This document shows positions 4,738-31,568 of a stretch of 64,000 bases of DNA, one piece after another (position 1 is the first letter of the stretch; each line of letters opens with the position of its first letter). Made by a program: the position numbers and the translations under genes. The notes below the pieces were generated by a model. It ran no database searches and was not told the origin of the DNA. It was given only the letters and a program-made list of their open reading frames with translations. This DNA is from a virus (taxonomy: Duplodnaviria; Caudoviricetes): positions 9,707 through 73,706 of the IMG/VR virus record IMGVR_UViG_3300026085_000098. One strand, given 5' to 3'.

Positions 4738-4943
4738 TTTTTAACATTCAAATTCATTGGAGAATATTGTTCTCCGTTATACCCGCTACCAGTGCCGTCT
4801 ACGCCTGAGTTGCAAGCAAATACAACAACACATAAAAAGAAAGCACTCCACAGTGTGGCACGTTTACTCCAAAGGATGAATCCATCCATTGCTTCTTCTG
4901 CTTGTTTTTGTGCTGCTGCTCTTACATCATCACTCATTGACAT
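4734..4943 (-). CDS. Single-TM small protein, weakly resembling aa3 cytochrome c oxidase subunit IV
   Basis: EEAMDGFILWSKRATLWSAFFLCVVVFACNS resembles the E..F.GF-then-TM-then-N pattern; by-eye similarity only. Confidence 0.35.
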   Translation of the reverse strand: MSMSDDVRAAAQKQAEEAMDGFILWSKRATLWSAFFLCVVVFACNSGVDGTGSGYNGEQYSPMNLNVKK

Positions 4944-5032
4944 AGATCCTCATACTTGGTAGTATGGGCTCTGTGTAATACACCGTTTGGCAGTTTTTCA
5001 GTGGTGAATAGTTTTAGAAAATATTTTAGCAT
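4934..5032 (-). CDS. 32-aa small protein
   Basis: Hand-translated MLKYFLKLFTTEKLPNGVLHRAHTTKYEDLCQ; strong SD AGGAGA; first gene after a sigma70 promoter. Not in ORF track. Confidence 0.65.
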   Translation of the reverse strand: MLKYFLKLFTTEKLPNGVLHRAHTTKYEDLCQ

Positions 5033-5055
5033 CTGTGTCTCCTGTGTGTATATAA

Positions 5056-5084
5056 TATATAGCAGGTCAACTGTGTAAAGTCAA
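5056..5084 (-). promoter_or_regulatory. Sigma70-type early promoter
   Basis: TTGACT-N17-TATATA. Confidence 0.65.
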
Positions 5085-5113
5085 CCTTACTTGGGTGTGT
5101 AAAATTGTAGCAG

Positions 5114-5458
5114 TTATTCAATATTACGAACTTGCCTTCCGCTATGACACATTTTTATACATAGCGGAGGAGGATTATCACTATTCCATGCTTTTTCACA
5201 ACAATGATTTTGATAGTAATCATGATTTACTATATCATATAAATCATAGTAATTTAAATTATTCCAATTAGGATCTTGCTCGAAAGCCTTGGTCAGTGCT
5301 TTATCAGACATTAAAGTGTTATCTGTAGGATGTGCATAACTTTCTACTAGGTAATGACAACAAGGCCATACTTTCCCATCAATGTTAATTTCCCAATCCC
5401 GTTCTATTGCATCATCAAATTCGTTATAACTCATACAATCTATATTATACATAGCCAT
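5114..5458 (-). CDS. Stand-alone SPASM/twitch-like Fe-S domain protein
   Basis: INIDGKVWPCC and C-terminal PLCIKMC; GAGGA SD 8 nt before the second ATG (5452). Confidence 0.65.
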   Translation of the reverse strand: MAMYNIDCMSYNEFDDAIERDWEINIDGKVWPCCHYLVESYAHPTDNTLMSDKALTKAFEQDPNWNNLNYYDLYDIVNHDYYQNHCCEKAWNSDNPPPLCIKMCHSGRQVRNIE

Positions 5459-6129: not shown

Positions 6130-6448
6130 ACTATATGTTATGCCACTTTCTGTTGCTAGGCTGTGGCCGCCCCCTTAATTATGCTGCTAGAGCGTAACCA
6201 GAAGGTGCAAAGTTTGAATTTGCATCTAGTTTTTTTGACCAATAACGCAGTCATCCGGTTAACTCCACTTCACTTTCACACCTGTCGATCCCATGTCAGG
6301 CCCATCATAAACGCACTTTCTTGGCTCGGTCAGGAGTTGTGTGCTGCACCACACCTATTATGCAGATAGGCGAAATGCGTTTATGGTGGACCTGCCCGGA
6401 ATTGAACCGGGGTCCAGTATGTGTCCACGTTGCTTCAACGCTAACAGT
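6130..6448 (-). ncRNA. ssrA: Circularly permuted two-piece tmRNA; tag peptide (A)ANSNFAPSGYALAA
   Basis: Order on the minus strand: acceptor piece with T-arm CCCCGG-TTCAATT-CCGGG and CAGGTCC-A-CCA end (3' end at 6384); intervening segment bounded by the inverted repeat cataaacgca/tgcgtttatg; coding piece starting GGGCCTGACATGGGATCGAC at 6303; G3:U70 in the acceptor stem; tag ORF 6223-6179; late promoter TATAAATA at 6450-6457. Outer ends are approximate. Confidence 0.95.
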
Positions 6449-7018
6449 TTATTTATAAAGTCTATATTTTATAGTGTCAACCACTCTTTTACTTAAAACA
6501 ATTTCGTAATGGTTTCTATCAATTGTTGTGTATTCTACATCGCCTCTGCAAGTCATTGAATGTCGTGTAACAATACCATCATTCTTTCCTGATAACCAAG
6601 GAACATCACCTGTTGTAGTAACAATTTGTAACCAAGGAACTTTTATTGAAAGTTTTCTACTGCCTTTTATAAACGCACTATGTGGCGTAATGTCTCTAAA
6701 TAATTGGTATCCTGGATTAAGTAAACCTCCCCAAGTTGCTATCTCGCTACCATTAAACGGTGTAGCAAGGCTAACTACACCTTTGATGTCAAATAAATTT
6801 TGTAAGTACGTTGCATATACTCCGCCTAAACTATGTGCAATGATACTAAAAGGCCCCTTGTTTTCCTTTAGGATTTCTTTCATTTCATCTAGATTTTCTT
6901 CAGCAGTTGTTTCTTTATCATAATTCAGAAAAATAGGATCTTTTGCTTTTATTTCTTTTTGAATATAAGCAAAACTTCTTTCGCTTGCTGTAGCGCCATG
7001 TATGAAAATTGTTTTCAT
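6449..7018 (-). CDS. Alpha/beta hydrolase (lipase/esterase-like)
   Basis: FIHG oxyanion motif, AHSLGG nucleophile elbow, LATPFNG, NDGIV, NHYEI; late promoter at 7023-7030. Confidence 0.85.
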   Translation of the reverse strand: MKTIFIHGATASERSFAYIQKEIKAKDPIFLNYDKETTAEENLDEMKEILKENKGPFSIIAHSLGGVYATYLQNLFDIKGVVSLATPFNGSEIATWGGLLNPGYQLFRDITPHSAFIKGSRKLSIKVPWLQIVTTTGDVPWLSGKNDGIVTRHSMTCRGDVEYTTIDRNHYEIVLSKRVVDTIKYRLYK

Positions 7019-7025
7019 ATATTAT

Positions 7026-7526
7026 TTATAGTGGGTTTTTGCAAACCATTATTATCAGTGTGCGTCTTTGCTCTATACAATCAATAGCATCAAAGTCATG
7101 CCAAGTTTGCTCACCTCTAAAGAATGCTGTGCCACCGTTTTGTATATAAGGGTTTTGATGAGAAAACTCTGTTTTATTTTTATAGATTTTTGTACCTGTG
7201 CCTGTGTCTGCTAAACCTAAAACAAAAGTAAAAATCTTTTTAGGATTGTCTGTATGTACTTTATTGTACTGCCAGTCTATATCAATATTATCAAATTGTA
7301 ATTCTAAGTAGTGTCTAGAAAAATCATACTTCAATATATCAGACAAATCTAGCATAGGTTCTTCTAGCAAATCATGCCATTTACCTTCCTTAAAAGGATG
7401 CATTGTACGTGAATCATAACGTGGTAAGTTTTTACTATATTCGTTAAACTCTTTAAACACATCTTGAGGAAGAAAATCATGTATTAGATATTGTTTCCAA
7501 GGGTGTTCTATTTTCTCAACTATCAT
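7026..7526 (-). CDS. 2OG-Fe(II) oxygenase-like protein
   Basis: VHTD, GTGT, TWHDF, RRTL. Confidence 0.65.
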   Translation of the reverse strand: MIVEKIEHPWKQYLIHDFLPQDVFKEFNEYSKNLPRYDSRTMHPFKEGKWHDLLEEPMLDLSDILKYDFSRHYLELQFDNIDIDWQYNKVHTDNPKKIFTFVLGLADTGTGTKIYKNKTEFSHQNPYIQNGGTAFFRGEQTWHDFDAIDCIEQRRTLIIMVCKNPL

Positions 7527-8062
7527 ACAAGAACACTTTCATCTCGCCATTGATCATTTACATAATTTACAATAACACTGATCCTATCATCTTGTAAAGG
7601 TTCTAGTTTGTGAGGTTCATTCCCTGTGTTTACAAAAAACCATCCACTACCTCTTTTGGCTCTTGTTTTTATATTGTTGAAAGTTGTGCTTGTTTCTTGG
7701 TAATCTAGATATAATTGCAATGAAAAAGTTTTGGCATCATCGTCACAATGATCTTCTAACCAACTACCTTTAAGATCTTTACAAAGTTCAATTCTCAATC
7801 TATCAGTTGTGTAATCTTTACCTACAGTTTCGCCAAACATTCTTCTTGTTTCGTACGAATCAAAAAACTCAATTAAGTCCCAAAAACAAGGATGTTCATA
7901 GTGATGCATCCAATGCCTAACATTTTTATCTGTTCGTTTACCATTCAATGATCCCCAGGAAAGCACTTCAGACTCGTTTATAATGCATCTTATAAGTTCA
8001 TCGCTTATAAGTTTTTCAAACTGCCAAATTGTGTAACCTACATTAACTGTGTTTAATATCAA
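7523..8062 (-). CDS. 2OG-Fe(II) oxygenase-like protein
   Basis: DHCD, FSLQLYL, EPHKL, RISVIVNY. Confidence 0.7.
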   Translation of the reverse strand: MILNTVNVGYTIWQFEKLISDELIRCIINESEVLSWGSLNGKRTDKNVRHWMHHYEHPCFWDLIEFFDSYETRRMFGETVGKDYTTDRLRIELCKDLKGSWLEDHCDDDAKTFSLQLYLDYQETSTTFNNIKTRAKRGSGWFFVNTGNEPHKLEPLQDDRISVIVNYVNDQWRDESVLV

Positions 8063-8789
8063 TTACCACTCTCCATTCTGTTCTAAATTTTTGGTATACC
8101 AATTGATTATCGACATAGACTCTGCCTTTAACAATCTTAAATTCTTTTGGAGGATTGTATAGTGTAGGATCGGCTAGTTCTTGCGGCCAATCTTCTATTA
8201 CCTCTTGAATATAACAAAGTCTATCTTTTGTTACCTTTTGTATTCCCCGCGGACAATTTTCAGCAAGGTTATCATAACTTACATAGTTTAAATTTTTGAT
8301 GCTAAATTCATGATCCTTAGGATCGCAAAATTTCATATGTGGAAAACGCTGCTGAATGTCTCCTTTGTAGTCTGTAAAAATAGCATACACAGGATAAGGA
8401 TATACTCTTTGAAAATATAATCTAGTGTTACCAGGATGACACGCAACTTTTTTGCCAAAGTAAACAACACACATTGGGTGTTTAATCCTTCCACCTTCGG
8501 CAATATCTTTTCCTATCACTGAAATTGCGTTTGTTTTTTCAAGTAAGTCAGCATTTGCTCTAGGATGGTTAGACAGAAATTTTGGTCCACAACGTTTTGT
8601 CATATCACTTACCATTTCTTCTATGTCATCTGAAATGCCGCTGTATGGTTTATTTCTAACAAGCCCTACATCTTCAAGTGTGGATTTTGCTACATAGGTT
8701 TTTGTGCCACAGAATCTATCAAAGTCTGCAAGTAGTTCTACTAGTTGGTCATATGATTTTAATTTTATGTGTTGATTTATAGGGCTCAT
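8043..8789 (-). CDS. Hypothetical protein, possibly ParB/Srx-like fold
   Basis: Likely start MSPIN at 8789, directly after the promoter; HPGNTRL motif. Confidence 0.55.
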   Translation of the reverse strand: MSPINQHIKLKSYDQLVELLADFDRFCGTKTYVAKSTLEDVGLVRNKPYSGISDDIEEMVSDMTKRCGPKFLSNHPRANADLLEKTNAISVIGKDIAEGGRIKHPMCVVYFGKKVACHPGNTRLYFQRVYPYPVYAIFTDYKGDIQQRFPHMKFCDPKDHEFSIKNLNYVSYDNLAENCPRGIQKVTKDRLCYIQEVIEDWPQELADPTLYNPPKEFKIVKGRVYVDNQLVYQKFRTEWRVVIDIKHS

Positions 8790-25569: not shown

Positions 25570-26313
25570 TCAACTTCTAATTTTAAGGTTGTAGTTAATT
25601 GCTTCTTGTAGTATTGATAAGTCAATTCCTGCAGATTTTGCAGTTTTAATTATTGCCGATGTATCTTTAGGAAAACAGTGGCCGCCAAAGCCTCGTTCTT
25701 CTGTAACTTGTGTGTGACTTTCTGTAATGCGTTCATCTTGTGCAATTTCTTTTCTAACAGGTTCATAATCAATACCAAATTCTTCGCAAAGATCAAAGAT
25801 CTGATTGAAAAATGCAACCTTTGTGGCAAGAAAACTGTTGCGGAAATATTTAATTAATATAAGTTGCTCAACATCATGCACTCTAATGTCTATACAACCT
25901 AAGAGTTCTAAGAAAAGACTTTGCCAATGATGGTACCCATTGCCGCCTATAAGTATGGTATTACAATTTTTAAAATCTTGTAATGCAGATGCTGCTCTTA
26001 GAAACTCAGGTGAAAAACAAATTTCTCTATCAGGATAAAGTTCTTGTATTGTGTTCCAACCTTCTAAACTAATTGTGCTTTTAATAAGAATAGGTACGTC
26101 TGGAGCGTTGCGTAACACATCTAAAACATTGCTCATGTCACAACTGCCGTTATCTGCTTCTGGAGTAGACACGCAAACAATAATCATATCAGCATGTCGC
26201 AAATCGCCATAGTGTTCCTTAACAGGATCACTTATAATTACAGTATGAGATTGCTTAAAGATGCTTTCGTGTGCTTGTCCTACAAACCCGTAGCCTGCAA
26301 TTCCTATTTTCAT
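25570..26313 (-). CDS. ugd: UDP-glucose/GDP-mannose dehydrogenase, short form lacking the C-terminal domain
   Basis: GYGFVG, ICVSTP-like VCVSTP, KSTI, SPEFL, KYFRNSFLATK, GFGGHCFPKD. Confidence 0.85.
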   Translation of the reverse strand: MKIGIAGYGFVGQAHESIFKQSHTVIISDPVKEHYGDLRHADMIIVCVSTPEADNGSCDMSNVLDVLRNAPDVPILIKSTISLEGWNTIQELYPDREICFSPEFLRAASALQDFKNCNTILIGGNGYHHWQSLFLELLGCIDIRVHDVEQLILIKYFRNSFLATKVAFFNQIFDLCEEFGIDYEPVRKEIAQDERITESHTQVTEERGFGGHCFPKDTSAIIKTAKSAGIDLSILQEAINYNLKIRS

Positions 26314-26480
26314 TCGTTTTCTTTTCTCGCAAATTTAATATCACAATAACCACAAACTACATAACCGTCGTGTGGCACTTTGTAATATGTAAGAGGGTGA
26401 TCGTTGTTTTCACCAGAACACTTTGCAGTGTCACCATCTACATATACAATACGTTCTTCGTAACCTTTTACTCTATTCAT
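26310..26480 (-). CDS. zf-CHCC zinc-finger protein (NDUFS6/NUMM-like), 56 aa
   Basis: Hand-translated MNRVKGYEERIVYVDGDTAKCSGENNDHPLTYYKVPHDGYVVCGYCDIKFARKENE; C-x-G..HP..Y..CxYC..F; ATGA overlaps at both ends. Not in ORF track. Confidence 0.85.
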   Translation of the reverse strand: MNRVKGYEERIVYVDGDTAKCSGENNDHPLTYYKVPHDGYVVCGYCDIKFARKENE

Positions 26481-26713
26481 CGTTTACCTAATGCTCTCAA
26501 CATCATTTGTTGATCATGTTTCTTTAGATATTCTTCTTCTATAGTTCCATAAGAACCGCATTTGTCTAATTCATTTTGTACATAAAATAATAAATCATAA
26601 AGTTCTCTTTTGCAATCCCAAGTAACGTAACCGTCCATTCTTGGATCTGTTGCTGCAAAAGTTATTTTACCTATTAATCTACATATTTCTTTAGTATTCC
26701 AATCTTTGATCAT
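26477..26713 (-). CDS. Hypothetical protein
   Basis: Likely start MIKDW at 26713, just after the pstB stop. Confidence 0.6.
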   Translation of the reverse strand: MIKDWNTKEICRLIGKITFAATDPRMDGYVTWDCKRELYDLLFYVQNELDKCGSYGTIEEEYLKKHDQQMMLRALGKR

Positions 26714-26723
26714 ATTGTATATA

Positions 26724-27512
26724 TTAACCAAAGTCTCCTGATACGTAAGCTTTGGTTTTACGATGGTTAGGATTCTCAAAGATTTTCTTTGTGCTGCCCT
26801 TTTCGATGATCTCTCCCAAATGAAAGTATGCTGTGGTATCAGAGATACGTCTAGCCTGTTGCATATTGTGCGTCACAATAACAATAGTATAGTTTTTCTT
26901 CAACTCTAGTATCAGTTCTTCAATGGCATTGGTTGAGATTGGATCCAATGCTGAACACGGTTCGTCTAAAAGTAAAATCTGTGGATCTACTGCAATACTT
27001 CTAGCAAAGCATAATCGCTGTTGCTGTCCACCTGATAGTCCAAACGCATTGTCGTTAAGTCTATCCTTGACTTCGCTCCATAGGTTTGCTTTCTTTAAAC
27101 TGTCTTCTACGATAGCATCTAATTGCTCTCGTGTTTCTGCCATACGATGTAGTCTAGGACCATACGCAATGTTTTCGTAAATGCTCTTGGGAAAAGGATT
27201 AGGCTTTTGGAACACCATTCCAACTGATTTGCGTAGGTTGTTCACATTTGTGTATTGTGTTCTATAGATGTCTGTGCCATCAATATCAACGCTACCTTTG
27301 GTAACACAATCATCAATAAAGTCGTTCATCCTGTTAAGGGCTCTAAGGAATGTACTCTTGCCACAGCCACTTGGACCAATCAGTGCTGTTACATTGTTCT
27401 TGCGTATGTCCAAGTCCGCATTAATAATAGCGTGATTGTCTCCGTACCAGATGTTCAATCCTCGCACGTTCATCTTCGCACTCTTGTTAAGTTCTAGTGT
27501 GTCTCTTACCAT
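26724..27512 (-). CDS. pstB: Phosphate ABC transporter ATP-binding subunit
   Basis: [45 protein letters not shown]. Confidence 0.97.
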
Positions 27513-28705
27513 TTTATTTCAAACCTCTTTCGTAACCAGATTGCTAATAAGTTTAATGCCACTAGGGCAACAAGTAGAACAAGGATAGCCGCACTGGTTT
27601 TCTCGGCAAAGCCTCGCTCGGGTGAGTCTGCCCATAGGAAGATTTGGACAGGTAATGTTGTAGCACTGTCTAATACACTGCTAGGAGGAACAAGAATAAA
27701 CGCAACCATACCAATCATCAGTAGTGGAGCCGATTCGCCTATGGCTCTGGCAATACCAATAATGGTTCCTGTGATAATACCAGGCATTGCCGCGGGCAAC
27801 ACTTGATAAATTGTTGTTTGTAATCTACTAGCACCAAGTCCATTTGATGCGTCACGTATTGCTTGTGGCACTGTTCTCAAGGCTGTCCTTGCTGAGATTA
27901 CGATTACGGGCAACACCAACACAGCCAGTGTGATGGCTCCAACGATACTGGCACTACGAGGCATACCAAAGAAGTTGATCAGCACTGCTAGGCCAAGCAA
28001 ACCATACACAATACTAGGTACAGCCGCTAGGTTGTTGATGTTTATCTCCATAAAGTCTCTGTAACGTCTCCAGCCTGAGCCTTTGCGTTTGGGGAACTCC
28101 TCCATATAGGTAGCACAACCTACACCTATGGGAAATGCTATACAAATAGCCAAGCCAATAGTGTAAACTGTACCTACTACTGCTCCCCAGATGCCTGCTA
28201 TCTCAGGGCTTCTACTATCTGAGTTCGTCCAGAAGTCCCAATTCCATGTGCGATAGATCGTACCTCGTTCTATTTCAGCATCAACGATATTACGCTGTGC
28301 ATCTGATAATTTATCGTATACACCTTTGACATACATATCAACATCTGTGTGTGCTACTAAAGTATATGTGCCTGGTGTTGTGATGTCTATTGTTGAATAG
28401 GCATTAGGTGTAACAAGTCCACGCAAGTTCTTCTTGCCTGTTCTATTCAGTTCTCCTACATAACCTTCGCCTACATCATATAATGCACTGTTGATTGTAC
28501 TCTTGGTACTCGACTCTATCTGTGTTACAGTTAGATCAATCTTTGTTTGTGTGAACGCACCGATGCCTCTGTAACCTAGTGTTGTAAAGAACACAATCAT
28601 TAAAACTGTGGTAAGAGTCAATGCTGCTTTACACGCATACTCAAGGCCTTTTTGTAGGCGTCTGCGTTTGCCGCTTAGTTTACTGTTTAAGTCTATCGAT
28701 TGCAT
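27506..28705 (-). CDS. pstA: Phosphate ABC transporter permease
   Basis: [51 protein letters not shown]. Confidence 0.95.
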
Positions 28706-29627
28706 TCTTATAATTCCTATATGCTATCCAGTTAAGGATGAACGTTACAACGAACAGTGTAAACGCAAGAGCAAATGCACTAAGGGTTTTCGCACTGTCA
28801 AACTCTTGGTCGCCTATGAGTAGTGTGACGATTTGAACTGTGACTGTTGTGACTGCGTTTAGAGGATTGGCTGTTAGATTTGCTGCAAGACCTGCTGCCA
28901 TAACCACAATCATAGTTTCACCGATTGCTCTTGCGATTGCCATAATAAATCCAGCGACAATGCCTGGTAATGCTGCTGGCAATATAATATCTTTTATACA
29001 CTCTTCTCGTGTGGCACCAATACCTCTAGCACCATCACGCATAGCACTGGGCACTGCTTTTATAACATCATCTGTGATTGAACTAATCAGTGGTATAATC
29101 ATTATACCCATTACTAGTCCTGCGGCCAGTGCTGACTCTGTAGCAACATCTAATCCAAATGTTACACCTATACTTCGCAGCCAAGGGCCTAGTACAATTG
29201 CAGCAAAGAATCCATATACCACTGTAGGAATTCCTGCAAGTATTTCAAGCAATGGCTTAACTATCATTCTCTGTGCAGGTTTAAGATATTCTGCCGTGTA
29301 TATTGCACTTAATAATCCTATAGGAGCAGCAATACACATTGCTATAATGGTTATAAAAAGTGTGCCCCATAACAATGGAACAAATCCAAACTCGCCTGAT
29401 GATCCTACTGAATCTGCTCTAAAGGCTGTTTGTGGGCTCCAAGTAGTATTAAAGAAAAAGTCCTGTGGTGGGACCATGGTAAAAAATTTGATTGTTTCGT
29501 AACTCAAACTTGCGACGATCGCAAATGTAATACCAATGGTGATCCAAGAACTTAAACGAAAGAAGCCTTTTAATAAATCTTCGTTGAGACCATTTTGTCT
29601 CTGTTTTGGTCCTATCCATATAAACAT
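28680..29627 (-). CDS. pstC: Phosphate ABC transporter permease
   Basis: WSPQTAFRAD, KPLLEILAGIPTVVYGFFA, RAIGETMIVVMAAG, IGDQEFDS. Confidence 0.95.
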   Translation of the reverse strand: MFIWIGPKQRQNGLNEDLLKGFFRLSSWITIGITFAIVASLSYETIKFFTMVPPQDFFFNTTWSPQTAFRADSVGSSGEFGFVPLLWGTLFITIIAMCIAAPIGLLSAIYTAEYLKPAQRMIVKPLLEILAGIPTVVYGFFAAIVLGPWLRSIGVTFGLDVATESALAAGLVMGIMIIPLISSITDDVIKAVPSAMRDGARGIGATREECIKDIILPAALPGIVAGFIMAIARAIGETMIVVMAAGLAANLTANPLNAVTTVTVQIVTLLIGDQEFDSAKTLSAFALAFTLFVVTFILNWIAYRNYKNAIDRLKQ

Positions 29628-29642
29628 CTATAACCTCATTGC

Positions 29643-29664
29643 GGAGTGGGCCGAAACCCACTCC
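29643..29664 (-). promoter_or_regulatory. pstS-pstC intergenic hairpin (mRNA stabiliser or differential expression)
   Basis: 8-bp stem ggagtggg/cccactcc with no U tract on the coding strand. Confidence 0.55.
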
Positions 29665-29674
29665 TTTTATGATC

Positions 29675-30670
29675 TTATTGTAACACGTTTGCACGTACTG
29701 TGTCAAGCTCTTTCTGTGGTAGAGGAATAAGTCCTGCATCACCTAATGAACCATCTGCACCTGCCAAGTCGTCTGACAAGTATAGTTCCATGAACTCACG
29801 CATACCTGGAATAACACCCATATGCTCTTTTTTAGCATATACATATAGTCCACGGCTTGCTGGATATGAACCGTCTGCGATTGATTCAAATGTTGGTGCT
29901 ACGCCTGAGATAGGAGAGCCCTGAATAACATCTGTGTTTTGGTCTAGGAATGAATAACCAAAGATACCATAAGCATTTGGATTGTTAGCAAGTTTCTGAA
30001 TGATAAGGTTATCATTTTCACCTGCTTCTACATACGCACCATCTTCACGGATACCATGACAGATACCTTTGAATGCTTTTTTGTCTTTTAGTTCTTTGAC
30101 CCACTTGTAAGTCTTACAACCTGATTCCATTACCAGTTCGCTCCACGCATCACGTGTTCCTGAACTTGGCGGAGGACCTAGCACTTCGATTTTAATTTTT
30201 GGGAATTTAGGATTAATTTCGCTCCAATATGTAAATGGGTTTGGAACAAGATTACCATTCTCTTGTGGAACATCTTTTGCCAGTGCTTGGAATAGTTCAC
30301 GTGGTGTGATTTCCAATGCTTCACCTGTGTTTGCCACTGCGAACACAATACCGTCATAACCCACTTTCATCTCTAGTGGTGTTACACCGTTTGCTGCACA
30401 AGTTTCTGCTTCGCTTGATTTGATTGCTCTTGAAGCATTTGTGAAGTCTGGGTGATCAACACCTGTGCCAGCACAGAATAGTTTCATACCACCGCCGGTG
30501 CCTGTTGATTCAATAACAGGAGCAGTGTTGCCCTCTGCAGCAAATGTTTCTGCTACGATTGTTGTGAAAGGATATACTGTAGAACTACCTACAACTCTAA
30601 TTTCTCGTGCTTCTGCGACAGTCGCCACAGCAAAAACGGCCACGAGTGCCGCTAACATTGATTTAACCAT
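29675..30670 (-). CDS. pstS: Phosphate-binding periplasmic protein
   Basis: Start MVKS at 30670 (SD AGGAGA); signal peptide; VGSSTVYPF, STGTGGG, NASRAIK, GPPPSSGTRD, YPASRGLYVY. Confidence 0.97.
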   Translation of the reverse strand: MVKSMLAALVAVFAVATVAEAREIRVVGSSTVYPFTTIVAETFAAEGNTAPVIESTGTGGGMKLFCAGTGVDHPDFTNASRAIKSSEAETCAANGVTPLEMKVGYDGIVFAVANTGEALEITPRELFQALAKDVPQENGNLVPNPFTYWSEINPKFPKIKIEVLGPPPSSGTRDAWSELVMESGCKTYKWVKELKDKKAFKGICHGIREDGAYVEAGENDNLIIQKLANNPNAYGIFGYSFLDQNTDVIQGSPISGVAPTFESIADGSYPASRGLYVYAKKEHMGVIPGMREFMELYLSDDLAGADGSLGDAGLIPLPQKELDTVRANVLQ

Positions 30671-30741
30671 TTTTTTCTCCTTATATGGTTTGCCCTGTTG
30701 GGCCATCATAAAATAAAGATGTAGAGTTGCCCCTACGCCGT

Positions 30742-30787
30742 TATTTATAATTTACTATAACATAAGTTTGTAACAGAAATATGACAA
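30742..30787 (-). promoter_or_regulatory. Pho box promoter plus nested T4-type late promoter for pstSCAB
   Basis: TTGTCAT-ATTT-CTGTTAC (30787-30770), exactly 10 nt upstream of a -10 TATAGT (30759-30754); TATAAATA at 30749-30742. Confidence 0.85.
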
Positions 30788-30923
30788 TACCTTTTTGCAT
30801 ATCGGGTATATCAAAATAACATAGCAAAACGGTCAGTTTTTATGCTATATAATATTGTAGAAGGAGAAAAACTAGCACTTGCTAGACTCGGATCACACAT
30901 ACATATATAGATTGGAAAACAAA

Positions 30924-31163
30924 ATGACAACTTTAGTTGCGAACACATTTGGTTGGTTAGGTTTTGCGGGCCTTGCTAACTGGTTCAAAAAATTGGCTGT
31001 AAAACTACAAGCACGTAGATTAGCCAACATCACCGTAAACGAATTATCAAGACTTTCAGACAGAGAATTAAACGATATGGGTCTTTCACGCTGTGACATT
31101 CGTTATGTTGCCGAAAAGCATTATGAAGATACTGTAAACGCAAACTTGAAAGGATGGGTGTAA
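30924..31163 (+). CDS. DUF1127 family protein
   Basis: RRLANITVNELSRLSDRELNDMGLSRCDI motif; likely start MTTLV at 30924. Confidence 0.9.
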   Translation: MTTLVANTFGWLGFAGLANWFKKLAVKLQARRLANITVNELSRLSDRELNDMGLSRCDIRYVAEKHYEDTVNANLKGWV

Positions 31164-31342
31164 TGGCTGAAGCAATTATGAAATACACATTCGCACCACT
31201 CCAAGGATTTTGGGCAGGGTTTTATAACTTCTGTGAAATCGCAGGTTATGCAAGAGCAGCATCAGAACTAGCACGCCATGGCTACTATGAAGAAGCAAAG
31301 AACTGTATGATGCAAGTTTCGAGACTACGCAATGACAGGTGA
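31163..31342 (+). CDS. Small protein coupled to DUF1127 ([19 protein letters not shown])
   Basis: TAATG overlap; start MAEA. Confidence 0.7.
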
Positions 31343-31568
31343 TATTGTAACTATGGGCGCCTACATTGGCGCAGGATTTGCTTGTTTGGGCATGGGCCTT
31401 GCAGCAATAGGTGTAGGACAAATTGTAGGTCAGTTTTTGAACGCCGCAATGGCTATGCCGCATCGTAGCACAGAACAAAACGCAAACCTATTTGTAGGTA
31501 TTGCTTTTGCCGAAGCACTTGGAATCTTTTCATTCTTAGTAGCATTGTTGTTGATGTTTGCAAGTTGA
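31332..31568 (+). CDS. atpE: F0F1 ATP synthase subunit c with a divergent polar loop
   Basis: [19 protein letters not shown] helix 1 and [24 protein letters not shown] helix 2 (proton-carrying Glu) of Rhodobacter type; loop AMAMPHRST instead of ALRNPSAA. Confidence 0.93.

Follow-up and report, generated by a model that had tools for sequence, protein, structure and literature searches.

A PhoU-less pstSCAB cassette with a phage-specific leader in a variable slot of a large marine phage lineage, and its DUF1127 neighbour

In this study, we describe a complete set of genes for the phosphate importer PstSCAB in a large uncultured marine phage, together with the DUF1127 gene that is transcribed away from it. 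The window that we analysed is a 64-kb stretch of DNA, positions 9707-73706 of the 73.7-kb IMG/VR record IMGVR_UViG_3300026085_000098, and it was compared with related contigs and loci that are designated by L-numbers (L002, L010 etc.). The reading that we prefer, and that we hold to be probable rather than secure, is that a long-resident pstSCAB cassette without phoU occupies a variable slot of the phage backbone behind a leader of phage type, and that DUF1127 and the small gene orf62 that follows it are neighbours belonging to the backbone and are not tied to the transporter. The features on which this reading is built are given below, with their coordinates in the window and their strand.

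26477-26779, minus strand: orf100, phage backbone gene at the distal edge of the slot; homologue in pst-less relatives
26724-27512, minus strand: pstB, ABC ATPase subunit, 262 amino acids (aa); NCBIfam TIGR00972
27506-28705, minus strand: pstA, permease with a long N-terminal extension, 399 aa; NCBIfam TIGR00974, Pfam BPD_transp_1
28680-29627, minus strand: pstC, permease, 315 aa; NCBIfam TIGR02138
29643-29664, no strand assigned: GC-rich hairpin in the pstS-pstC spacer, 8-bp stem with 6 GC pairs; terminator scan
29675-30670, minus strand: pstS, periplasmic phosphate-binding protein with a signal peptide, 331 aa; Pfam PBP_like_2
30691-30707, minus strand: 17-nucleotide (nt) element GATGGCCCAACAGGGCA with the mini-hairpin GCCC/AACA/GGGC, followed by a Shine-Dalgarno sequence; identity across leaders
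30721-30736, minus strand: stem-loop of the 5' leader; per-sequence folds
30742-30749, minus strand: TATAAATA, candidate -10-type or late-type promoter element; leader comparison
30754-30759, minus strand: TATAGT, -10-like hexamer paired with the Pho box; direct reading
30770-30787, minus strand: Pho-box-like site TTGTCATATTTCTGTTAC; degenerate pattern scan
30924-31163, plus strand: phage-type DUF1127 gene, 79 aa; Pfam PF06568, phrog_26566
31154-31342, plus strand: orf62, small partner gene, 62 aa, whose start overlaps the DUF1127 stop

The pstS, pstC, pstA and pstB genes are intact and adjacent, in the order S-C-A-B on the minus strand (26724-30670), with short or overlapping junctions. A first-pass annotation of this DNA had called a complete pstSCAB here and the call holds, since Pfam and NCBIfam assign all four open reading frames (ORFs). 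PstB scores 387.6 bits against TIGR00972 (cut-off 343.2, equivalog level) and has its Walker A, LSGGQ signature, Walker B (ILLLDEP) and H-loop motifs intact, while PstA reaches 217.8 bits against TIGR00974 (cut-off 193.45) and PstC 265.6 bits against TIGR02138 (cut-off 196.45). PstS, which carries a signal peptide and the motifs GSSTVYP, STGTGGG and SSGTRD, matches Pfam PBP_like_2 (E 4.8e-46) and scores 145 bits against NCBIfam TIGR02136, under the subfamily cut-off of 206.6. Its start is the ATG at 30670, preceded by AAGGAG; the ATG of the longest ORF, at 30709, reads through a conserved element of the leader. The hairpin in the pstS-pstC spacer could set the pstS:pstCAB ratio. A near-consensus sigma-70-like site, TTGACA-18-TACAAT with a TG, is also found at the 3' end of pstS (29677-29706, minus strand), consensus sites of this kind not being enriched in the region, and together with the hairpin at 29643-29664 it might uncouple pstS from pstCAB levels.

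The absence of phoU and phoB beside the pst genes, also noted at first, extends to the whole 73.7-kb record in domain searches. Indeed, no PhoU (PF01895) was detected in the roughly 396 kb made up by this record and five further phage contigs with pst genes, and neither PhoH nor PhoB-type (Trans_reg_C) domains were detected in the record. In the five bacterial genomes with a close PstC that we examined, phoU is present every time, about 1.8-2.3 kb downstream of pstC, which fits a position right after pstB. As all of these phage records are fragments, the absence of phoU from the full genome is not proven. The genes nonetheless show that the phage carries an intact high-affinity importer, PstSCAB, without PhoU, phosphate transport being predicted from the genes. 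Because no cognate PhoU accompanies the transporter, its uptake would probably not be reported to PhoR in the normal way.

With PstA as the query, ten more viral contigs proved to hold the cassette (76-87% identity), and further contigs were recovered via the 17-mer of the leader, which brings the total to at least 13 other viral contigs. Relatives have the same set of backbone genes around the cassette, namely orf100, UDP-glucose dehydrogenase (UGDH), p280 and p362 after pstB. Two small neighbours are kept in relatives as well: a gene for a zf-CHCC (NDUFS6-like) protein immediately downstream of the cassette (26310-26480, minus strand) and a short UGDH-like gene (25570-26313, minus strand). 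A search with DUF1127 returned 20 viral contigs. In the window and in L002, pstSCAB is directly divergent from DUF1127 at 0.25 kb; in L115 the two are 0.7 kb apart, in L010 and L195 they are 1.75 kb apart with an outer-membrane-protein (OMP)-like gene and others between them, and L122 possibly holds a further pstSCAB beside DUF1127. In six relatives, the same slot is taken by a 323-aa permease that is likewise divergent from DUF1127, either between the orf100 homologue and DUF1127 (L016, L017, L020 and L024) or between a lipase gene and DUF1127 (L025 and L026). In the former four, which lack pst, the orf100 homologue adjoins the PiT-like permease gene or UGDH. At or close to this place, some relatives encode a divergent permease of PiT type, others a small protein resembling those of the outer membrane, and others nothing, and phosphate-uptake genes of two unrelated kinds lie beside DUF1127 in about nine lineages. 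This comparison shows the cassette to sit in a variable slot of the phage backbone that repeatedly takes up cargo with a predicted role in phosphate uptake.

The permease of 323 aa is a distant member of the PiT/PHO4 group, and transport is predicted for it. The Atlas clusters nearest to it are named phosphate/sulfate permease, 16/22 members of its family touch Pfam PHO4 (best E 1.2e-6), and the sole PDB match of the family profile is the PiT of T. maritima (6L85, E 0.0011), with GANDVANA-type signatures aligned. As a single sequence, the protein has no match in PDB, NCBIfam or Pfam at E 0.01. Over 7,700 relatives of the family are present in metagenomes, and almost all of these lack annotation and stay below Pfam thresholds. 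Its gene, at 6652-7623 (minus strand) in L017, is also present in L016, L020, L024, L025, L026, L022 and L004, the last of which holds both pstSCAB and the permease. A protein of 183 aa with a signal peptide is encoded before pstS or the PiT-like gene in L010 (5399-5950, plus strand), L024 (7065-7607, minus strand) and L195. Its gene bears the same leader elements; the protein has no Pfam match, the Atlas points to DUF2490, a family of beta-barrels of the outer membrane, and it may be an outer-membrane phosphate channel. PiT-like and OMP-like genes are also preceded by a second type of leader, in which a variable hairpin is followed by a conserved GTGAGCGACGGGGTAAAGCCGTCAA and a Shine-Dalgarno sequence (L017 7624-7720; L024 6975-7060 and 7610-7700; all on the minus strand); its layout is analogous to that of the pstS leader but its sequence is different. 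Finally, the pstS of L119 (265-1263, plus strand; 49% identity) is preceded by the leader of the pst cassette but stands alone, pstCAB being absent within 13 kb and the upstream context not having been recovered, so that the lineage spans pstS-only, full Pst and PiT-type states.

The phage copies of the four genes were compared pairwise. At synonymous divergence (dS) of about 0.8-1.4, the ratio of non-synonymous to synonymous divergence (dN/dS) is 0.06-0.14 (pstB 0.06, pstC 0.08, pstA 0.11, pstS 0.14) and no copy has a stop codon; by these estimates, the cassette is under purifying selection. The bacterial PstC proteins nearest to those of the phages are alpha- and gammaproteobacterial, at 57-66% identity. 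In a tree built with the 80 nearest PstC of Pseudomonadota, the eight phage copies group together (SH-aLRT 100), a long branch setting them apart from every bacterial sequence, and no donor clade emerges. The single clade, its long branch, the selection and the kept motifs together point to an old, monophyletic and phage-adapted cassette. Altogether, phylogeny and gene order show that it was acquired once, long ago, by the phage lineage, from what would be a proteobacterial-type source. When 185,579 genomes were scanned with the leader 17-mer in search of the donor or host, the outcome was chance-level matches and one contig with the phage cassette. This contig (L195, PBPT01000067.1; 12.5 kb) carries the phage pstSCAB and leader and is binned in a 'Candidatus Neomarinimicrobiota' metagenome-assembled genome, a placement that is probably a binning error. 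Among GenBank phage isolates, matches to pstC were short metagenomic or unannotated, host-like records, with no related phage.

The pstS gene is preceded by a leader of which we collected 13 distinct phage versions, and these have one layout: a TATAAATA-type element, a stem-loop, an AU-rich spacer, the 17-mer GATGGCCCAACAGGGCA, a Shine-Dalgarno sequence and the ATG. The ATAAATA core of the first element is found in 13/13 leaders and the full TATAAATA in 12/13, in 11 of these at 2-5 nt before the hairpin. We infer that it is a core -10 or late-type promoter and a conserved control element of the cassette. As a general late promoter it was rejected, its 9 matches in the window against 6.4 expected not being significant. 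The hairpin occupies the same position in 13/13 leaders; it has 7-13 bp, its sequence differs by lineage and, in per-sequence folds with shuffles, each stem-loop is more stable than its own shuffles (mean z -4.3); it is a putative 5'-terminal stabiliser of the mRNA. RNAalifold, applied to the 13 leaders after alignment with MAFFT, gave the mini-hairpin only, because the variable arms of the stem were unaligned. The 17-mer is identical in the 13 leaders, with variable flanks, and unique in the window; its predicted function is perhaps that of a binding site. In a cassette long adapted to phages, these elements would provide transcription start, mRNA stabilisation and perhaps a site for a binding partner. 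The leader of the window also has a weak resemblance to the Rfam IMES-2 RNA (RF02035; 25.9 bits, gathering 54.7). This identity was rejected because none of the other phage leaders matches and because true IMES-2 loci, present in 11/121 Pelagibacterales genomes, stand alone with no pstS nearby.

Just upstream, the Pho-box-like site TTGTCATATTTCTGTTAC (TTGTCAT-ATTT-CTGTTAC) agrees at 11/14 positions with CTGTCAT-N4-CTGTCAT, a consensus of proteobacterial type. It is the sole match to the degenerate Pho-box pattern in the 64 kb (0.29 expected), and 0.76% of 150-nt windows drawn at random from these phage loci attain 11/14. The first-pass annotation had placed this box 10 nt upstream of a -10, and this geometry is exact: TTGTCATATTTCTGTTAC ends 10 nt before TATAGT and stands in place of a -35 element. 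The box is common to the window and its nearest relative, L002, and L117 has an analogous TTGTAATgaaaTTGTAAT-N10-TATAAT with the same geometry. The leaders of four relatives have a TTGAC(T/G) -35-like hexamer 16-18 nt upstream of TATAAATA, the MazG-adjacent type of cassette has a half-site of the Pho box only, and other leaders have a half-site or nothing. Across orthologous leaders, the Pho box is therefore not conserved, as it occurs only in the window and L002 and, in another version, in L117, and control by Pho would be a lineage-specific addition to the cassette. As this box comes with its own -10 just upstream of the leader, phosphorylated host PhoB (PhoB~P) probably adds induction under phosphate starvation in the phage of the window and in L002.

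The DUF1127 gene lies, as first annotated, divergent from pstS, and the intergenic region that they share measures 253 bp. Its product scores 46.7 bits against PF06568 (gathering 23.3; E 2.7e-12) and belongs to a subfamily found in metagenomes only, of 69-136 aa (mostly 74-87 aa), with a hydrophobic N-terminal segment, a canonical core and a conserved NLKGWV tail. The annotation had drawn on a link between short DUF1127 proteins, PhoR and phosphate uptake, and the literature supports it: the SDPs of Agrobacterium and YjiS of E. coli bind PhoR and change pst expression and uptake, and loss of DUF1127 proteins in Agrobacterium and E. coli increases pst expression and phosphate uptake (PMC12501420). 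These PhoR-binding SDP/YjiS proteins have about 47-54 aa and about 14% Arg (PMC12501420). The protein of the window has neither this size nor this Arg content, with 6 Arg in 79 aa (7.6%).

Orf62 accompanies DUF1127 in most of the approximately 24 DUF1127-bearing contigs. In 8/11 aligned pairs, window included, its start overlaps the DUF1127 stop; the MGVM/MGIM start is kept in 10/11 pairs, and in most lineages, again with the window, the codons of the NLKGWV tail overlap the MGVM start of orf62. Its core RAA-EL-R-G--EAK is conserved, and no match to known families was obtained. In L027, orf62 is followed by a tandem paralogue (8362-8523, plus strand) with the motif A--L-R-G-Y-EA. Two genes past DUF1127, the window has an ATP synthase subunit c-like gene (31332-31568, plus strand; Pfam ATP-synt_C, E 3.3e-10) that it alone possesses among the first 31 loci compared, and an alternative oxidase (AOX/PTOX, Pfam E 2e-76) comes after DUF1127-orf62 in L010 (3494-4087, minus strand), L022, L026 and L027. 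In most relatives, DUF1127 is itself preceded by a conserved and structured leader of about 150 nt, with three hairpins and a CACACATACACATATA box (L016, L017, L018, L021-L027, L115 and L012) and with repeated ATGCAAAAA boxes further upstream; the window, L002 and L019 have a shortened version, and that of L115 has no Rfam match.

The stretch genuinely belongs to the genome of a large marine phage that is uncultured. Its record is assigned to the viruses, phage backbone genes flank the pst cassette on either side, and the window contains ribonucleotide reductase genes at 10.5-14.7 kb and genes for tail fibres and virion proteins at 45-54 kb. CheckV gives a completeness of 35%, which for 73.7 kb implies a whole genome of roughly 200 kb. 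One virion protein ties the phage to the S-T4/S-B43 group by sequence kinship, with 42-44% identity to its counterparts in the Synechococcus phages S-T4, S-B43 and S-B05. The window also encodes the following RNA, which passes the gathering thresholds of the Rfam families tmRNA_permuted and alpha_tmRNA.

6139-6484, minus strand: permuted two-piece transfer-messenger RNA (tmRNA) of alpha type, tag ANSNFAPSGYALAA; Rfam

In the related contig L006, a permuted tmRNA is found immediately after pstB (4810-5212). The Pst proteins of the window are of proteobacterial type, and among isolates Pelagibacter phage Mosig has the PstS most similar to that of the window (46%). Outside this lineage, DUF1127 occurs in phages that infect Sinorhizobium and Roseobacter. 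Given the alpha-type tmRNA, the presence of DUF1127 in alphaproteobacterial phages, the kinship of PstS and the type of Pho box, the host is most likely an alphaproteobacterium rather than a cyanobacterium, even though the phage is structurally akin to cyanomyoviruses.

That the cassette would be host DNA misassembled onto a phage, or a recent and non-functional capture, is hardly credible. Its G+C (0.40-0.41) is slightly above that of most flanks (0.35-0.38), as such an origin might leave it, but the cassette lies between shared phage genes in independent contigs from many samples, its copies form one clade far from bacterial PstC, selection at dS of about 1 is strongly purifying, and bacterial pst loci lack the leader, which is specific to the phages. 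The contig is thus viral and non-chimeric, a point that the first-pass annotation had left to be confirmed. The annotation had gone further, with a phosphate-uptake and PhoR-control module in which the phage DUF1127 protein, perhaps with Orf62, would bind host PhoR and would have been selected beside a PhoU-free transporter, thereby controlling transport and sensing. This we regard as possible, while leaning against it. What stands of the module is the recurrent adjacency to phosphate importers: DUF1127 is the divergent neighbour of two that are not homologous, with no gene between it and pst in the window and L002 and with other genes intervening over about 0.7-1.8 kb in L115, L010 and L195, and the fact that one slot carries two unrelated phosphate-uptake cargos is the best evidence for a functional link. 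This adjacency arose in phages; a DUF1127 gene was found within about 6 kb of none of 80 bacterial pst loci (901 kb) by a hidden Markov model search sensitive enough to detect the DUF1127 proteins of phages phiM12 (E 1e-13) and CRP-345 (E 1e-11). Moreover, the hydrophobic N-terminus fits a membrane-associated protein, and by analogy with the SDPs and YjiS, which bind PhoR and alter pst expression and uptake, the phage protein may bind PhoR or another membrane sensor kinase. What does not stand is a fixed pair. About ten lineages, about half of the related ones, keep DUF1127/orf62 without a transporter nearby (L012-15, L018, L019, L021, L023 and L027-31), some of them in an Hsp20-ClpS-GuaC context; no PstC occurs anywhere in the larger of these contigs (L019, L027 and L028), nor in L025 and L026, which have the PiT-like gene instead. 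The survey of gene order thus finds pstSCAB and DUF1127 to be frequent neighbours, while some cassettes are apart from it: in L003 and L008 the pst genes adjoin MazG with no DUF1127 within 6 kb, and in the contig of L003 it lies 15 kb away. The slot also holds genes unrelated to phosphate (lipase, rubrerythrin-like), with UGDH adjoining it, and DUF1127 of Sinorhizobium phage phiM12 and Roseobacter phage CRP-345 has small hypothetical genes around it and no phosphate genes near. The protein is also larger and poorer in Arg than those tested. Finally, since the published DUF1127 proteins restrain the Pho regulon, a faithful mimic would dampen the Pho-box promoter of the phage's own pstS; an antagonist would raise PhoB-dependent promoters, and any effect could go in either direction. 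In the reading that we prefer, DUF1127 and orf62 are a backbone pair that flanks the slot.

A wider version of the same idea, which we consider unlikely, has a swap-in phosphate island (PstSCAB, PiT, outer-membrane channel or pstS alone) behind structured mRNA leaders of phage type, together with the phage-only DUF1127 subfamily and orf62 as a viral modulator of the host PhoR/PhoB circuit, mimicking or antagonising the DUF1127 proteins of the host and acting without PhoU; if true, the virus would control phosphate transport and sensing together, free of PhoU. Quite improbable to us is that DUF1127 would be an RNA-binding factor of the CcaF1 type, acting on the structured phage leaders, i.e. 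its own leader of about 150 nt and the elements before pstS and the PiT-like gene. CcaF1 of R. sphaeroides, a DUF1127 protein of 71 aa, is reported to bind RNA and to affect RNA stability (summarised in PMC12501420). The phage protein has a similar length, and pstS, the OMP-like gene, the PiT-like gene and DUF1127 all have leaders that are conserved and structured. However, no motif is common to both types of leader, protein and leaders do not co-vary, the DUF1127 gene of the window lacks the long leader, and the proposal is wholly inferential. Several points also weigh against a long-resident, PhoU-less cassette with DUF1127 as a mere neighbour. The recurrence of DUF1127 beside two unrelated phosphate transporters could mean a real functional link, and with 35% of the genome in hand, phoU, phoB or phoR could sit elsewhere in it. 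The Pho box rests on one lineage and one analogous case, about one score of at least 10/14 being expected by chance among the 16 leaders tested. As TATAAATA is not enriched in the window, calling it a promoter draws on its fixed position, and the host is proposed from sequence signals.

Phosphate is often limiting for marine heterotrophs, and phage replication is phosphate-demanding. An importer kept without PhoU, and swapped for a PiT-type permease in relatives, would take the viral reprogramming of phosphate well past the single pstS of cyanophages. The recurrent DUF1127 neighbour offers a concrete and cheap route to ask whether viruses exploit the DUF1127-PhoR interaction, and the invariant elements of the leader are candidates for new cis-regulatory RNAs. 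Taken one by one, a phage-borne Pst system, a phage pstS under a Pho box and a DUF1127 gene in phages of alphaproteobacteria were known or expected. The new elements are a marine lineage of large phages whose PhoU-less cassette is monophyletic, the alternation of Pst and PiT-type importers in one slot, a conserved leader and a recurrent, non-obligate DUF1127/orf62 neighbour.

Compared with the pstSCAB-phoU operons of Pseudomonadota such as E. coli and Sinorhizobium meliloti, the phage cassette has the same four subunits in the same order, with PstC, PstA and PstB at equivalog level, a PstS with a signal peptide, a hairpin after pstS and a Pho box replacing the -35. It differs from them by having no phoU or phoBR nearby, by a PstC that is at most 66% identical and by its phage-specific leader. 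The pstS of cyanophages, reportedly driven by host PhoBR (Zeng and Chisholm in 2012), is similar in that a phosphate-binding gene is placed under the phosphate-starvation regulator of the host, as predicted here. In contrast, the phage of the window has a whole transporter and not pstS alone, its Pho box is of the proteobacterial CTGTCAT type, and its PstS does not match that of cyanophages at E 1e-5. The DUF1127 protein shares the core LSxLSDRELxDxGLxRxDI with SDP1-3 of A. tumefaciens, YjiS of E. coli and Salmonella, and CcaF1, but it is set apart by its length of 79 aa, hydrophobic N-terminus, NLKGWV tail, 7.6% Arg and Orf62 partner. The PiT-like permease has two GANDVANA-like signatures and a PxSTT motif in common with T. 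maritima PiT (6L85), while it is very divergent from PiT/PHO4 proteins (query at 10.3 bits, gathering 33.7) and shorter (323 aa against about 400). Another parallel bears on the view, taken in the first-pass annotation, that phages usually carry only pstS or phoH: complete Pst systems were already published for four soil viral operational taxonomic units (OTUs) and one public phage genome (PMC10987575). As here, pstS, pstC, pstA and pstB are borne by phages and proposed to serve as auxiliary phosphate uptake. The lineage that we describe, distinguished from the soil OTUs by description, is one of large marine phages in which the cassette is monophyletic and resident and has its own leader, with a PiT-type permease as alternative cargo of the slot and DUF1127 as a neighbour.

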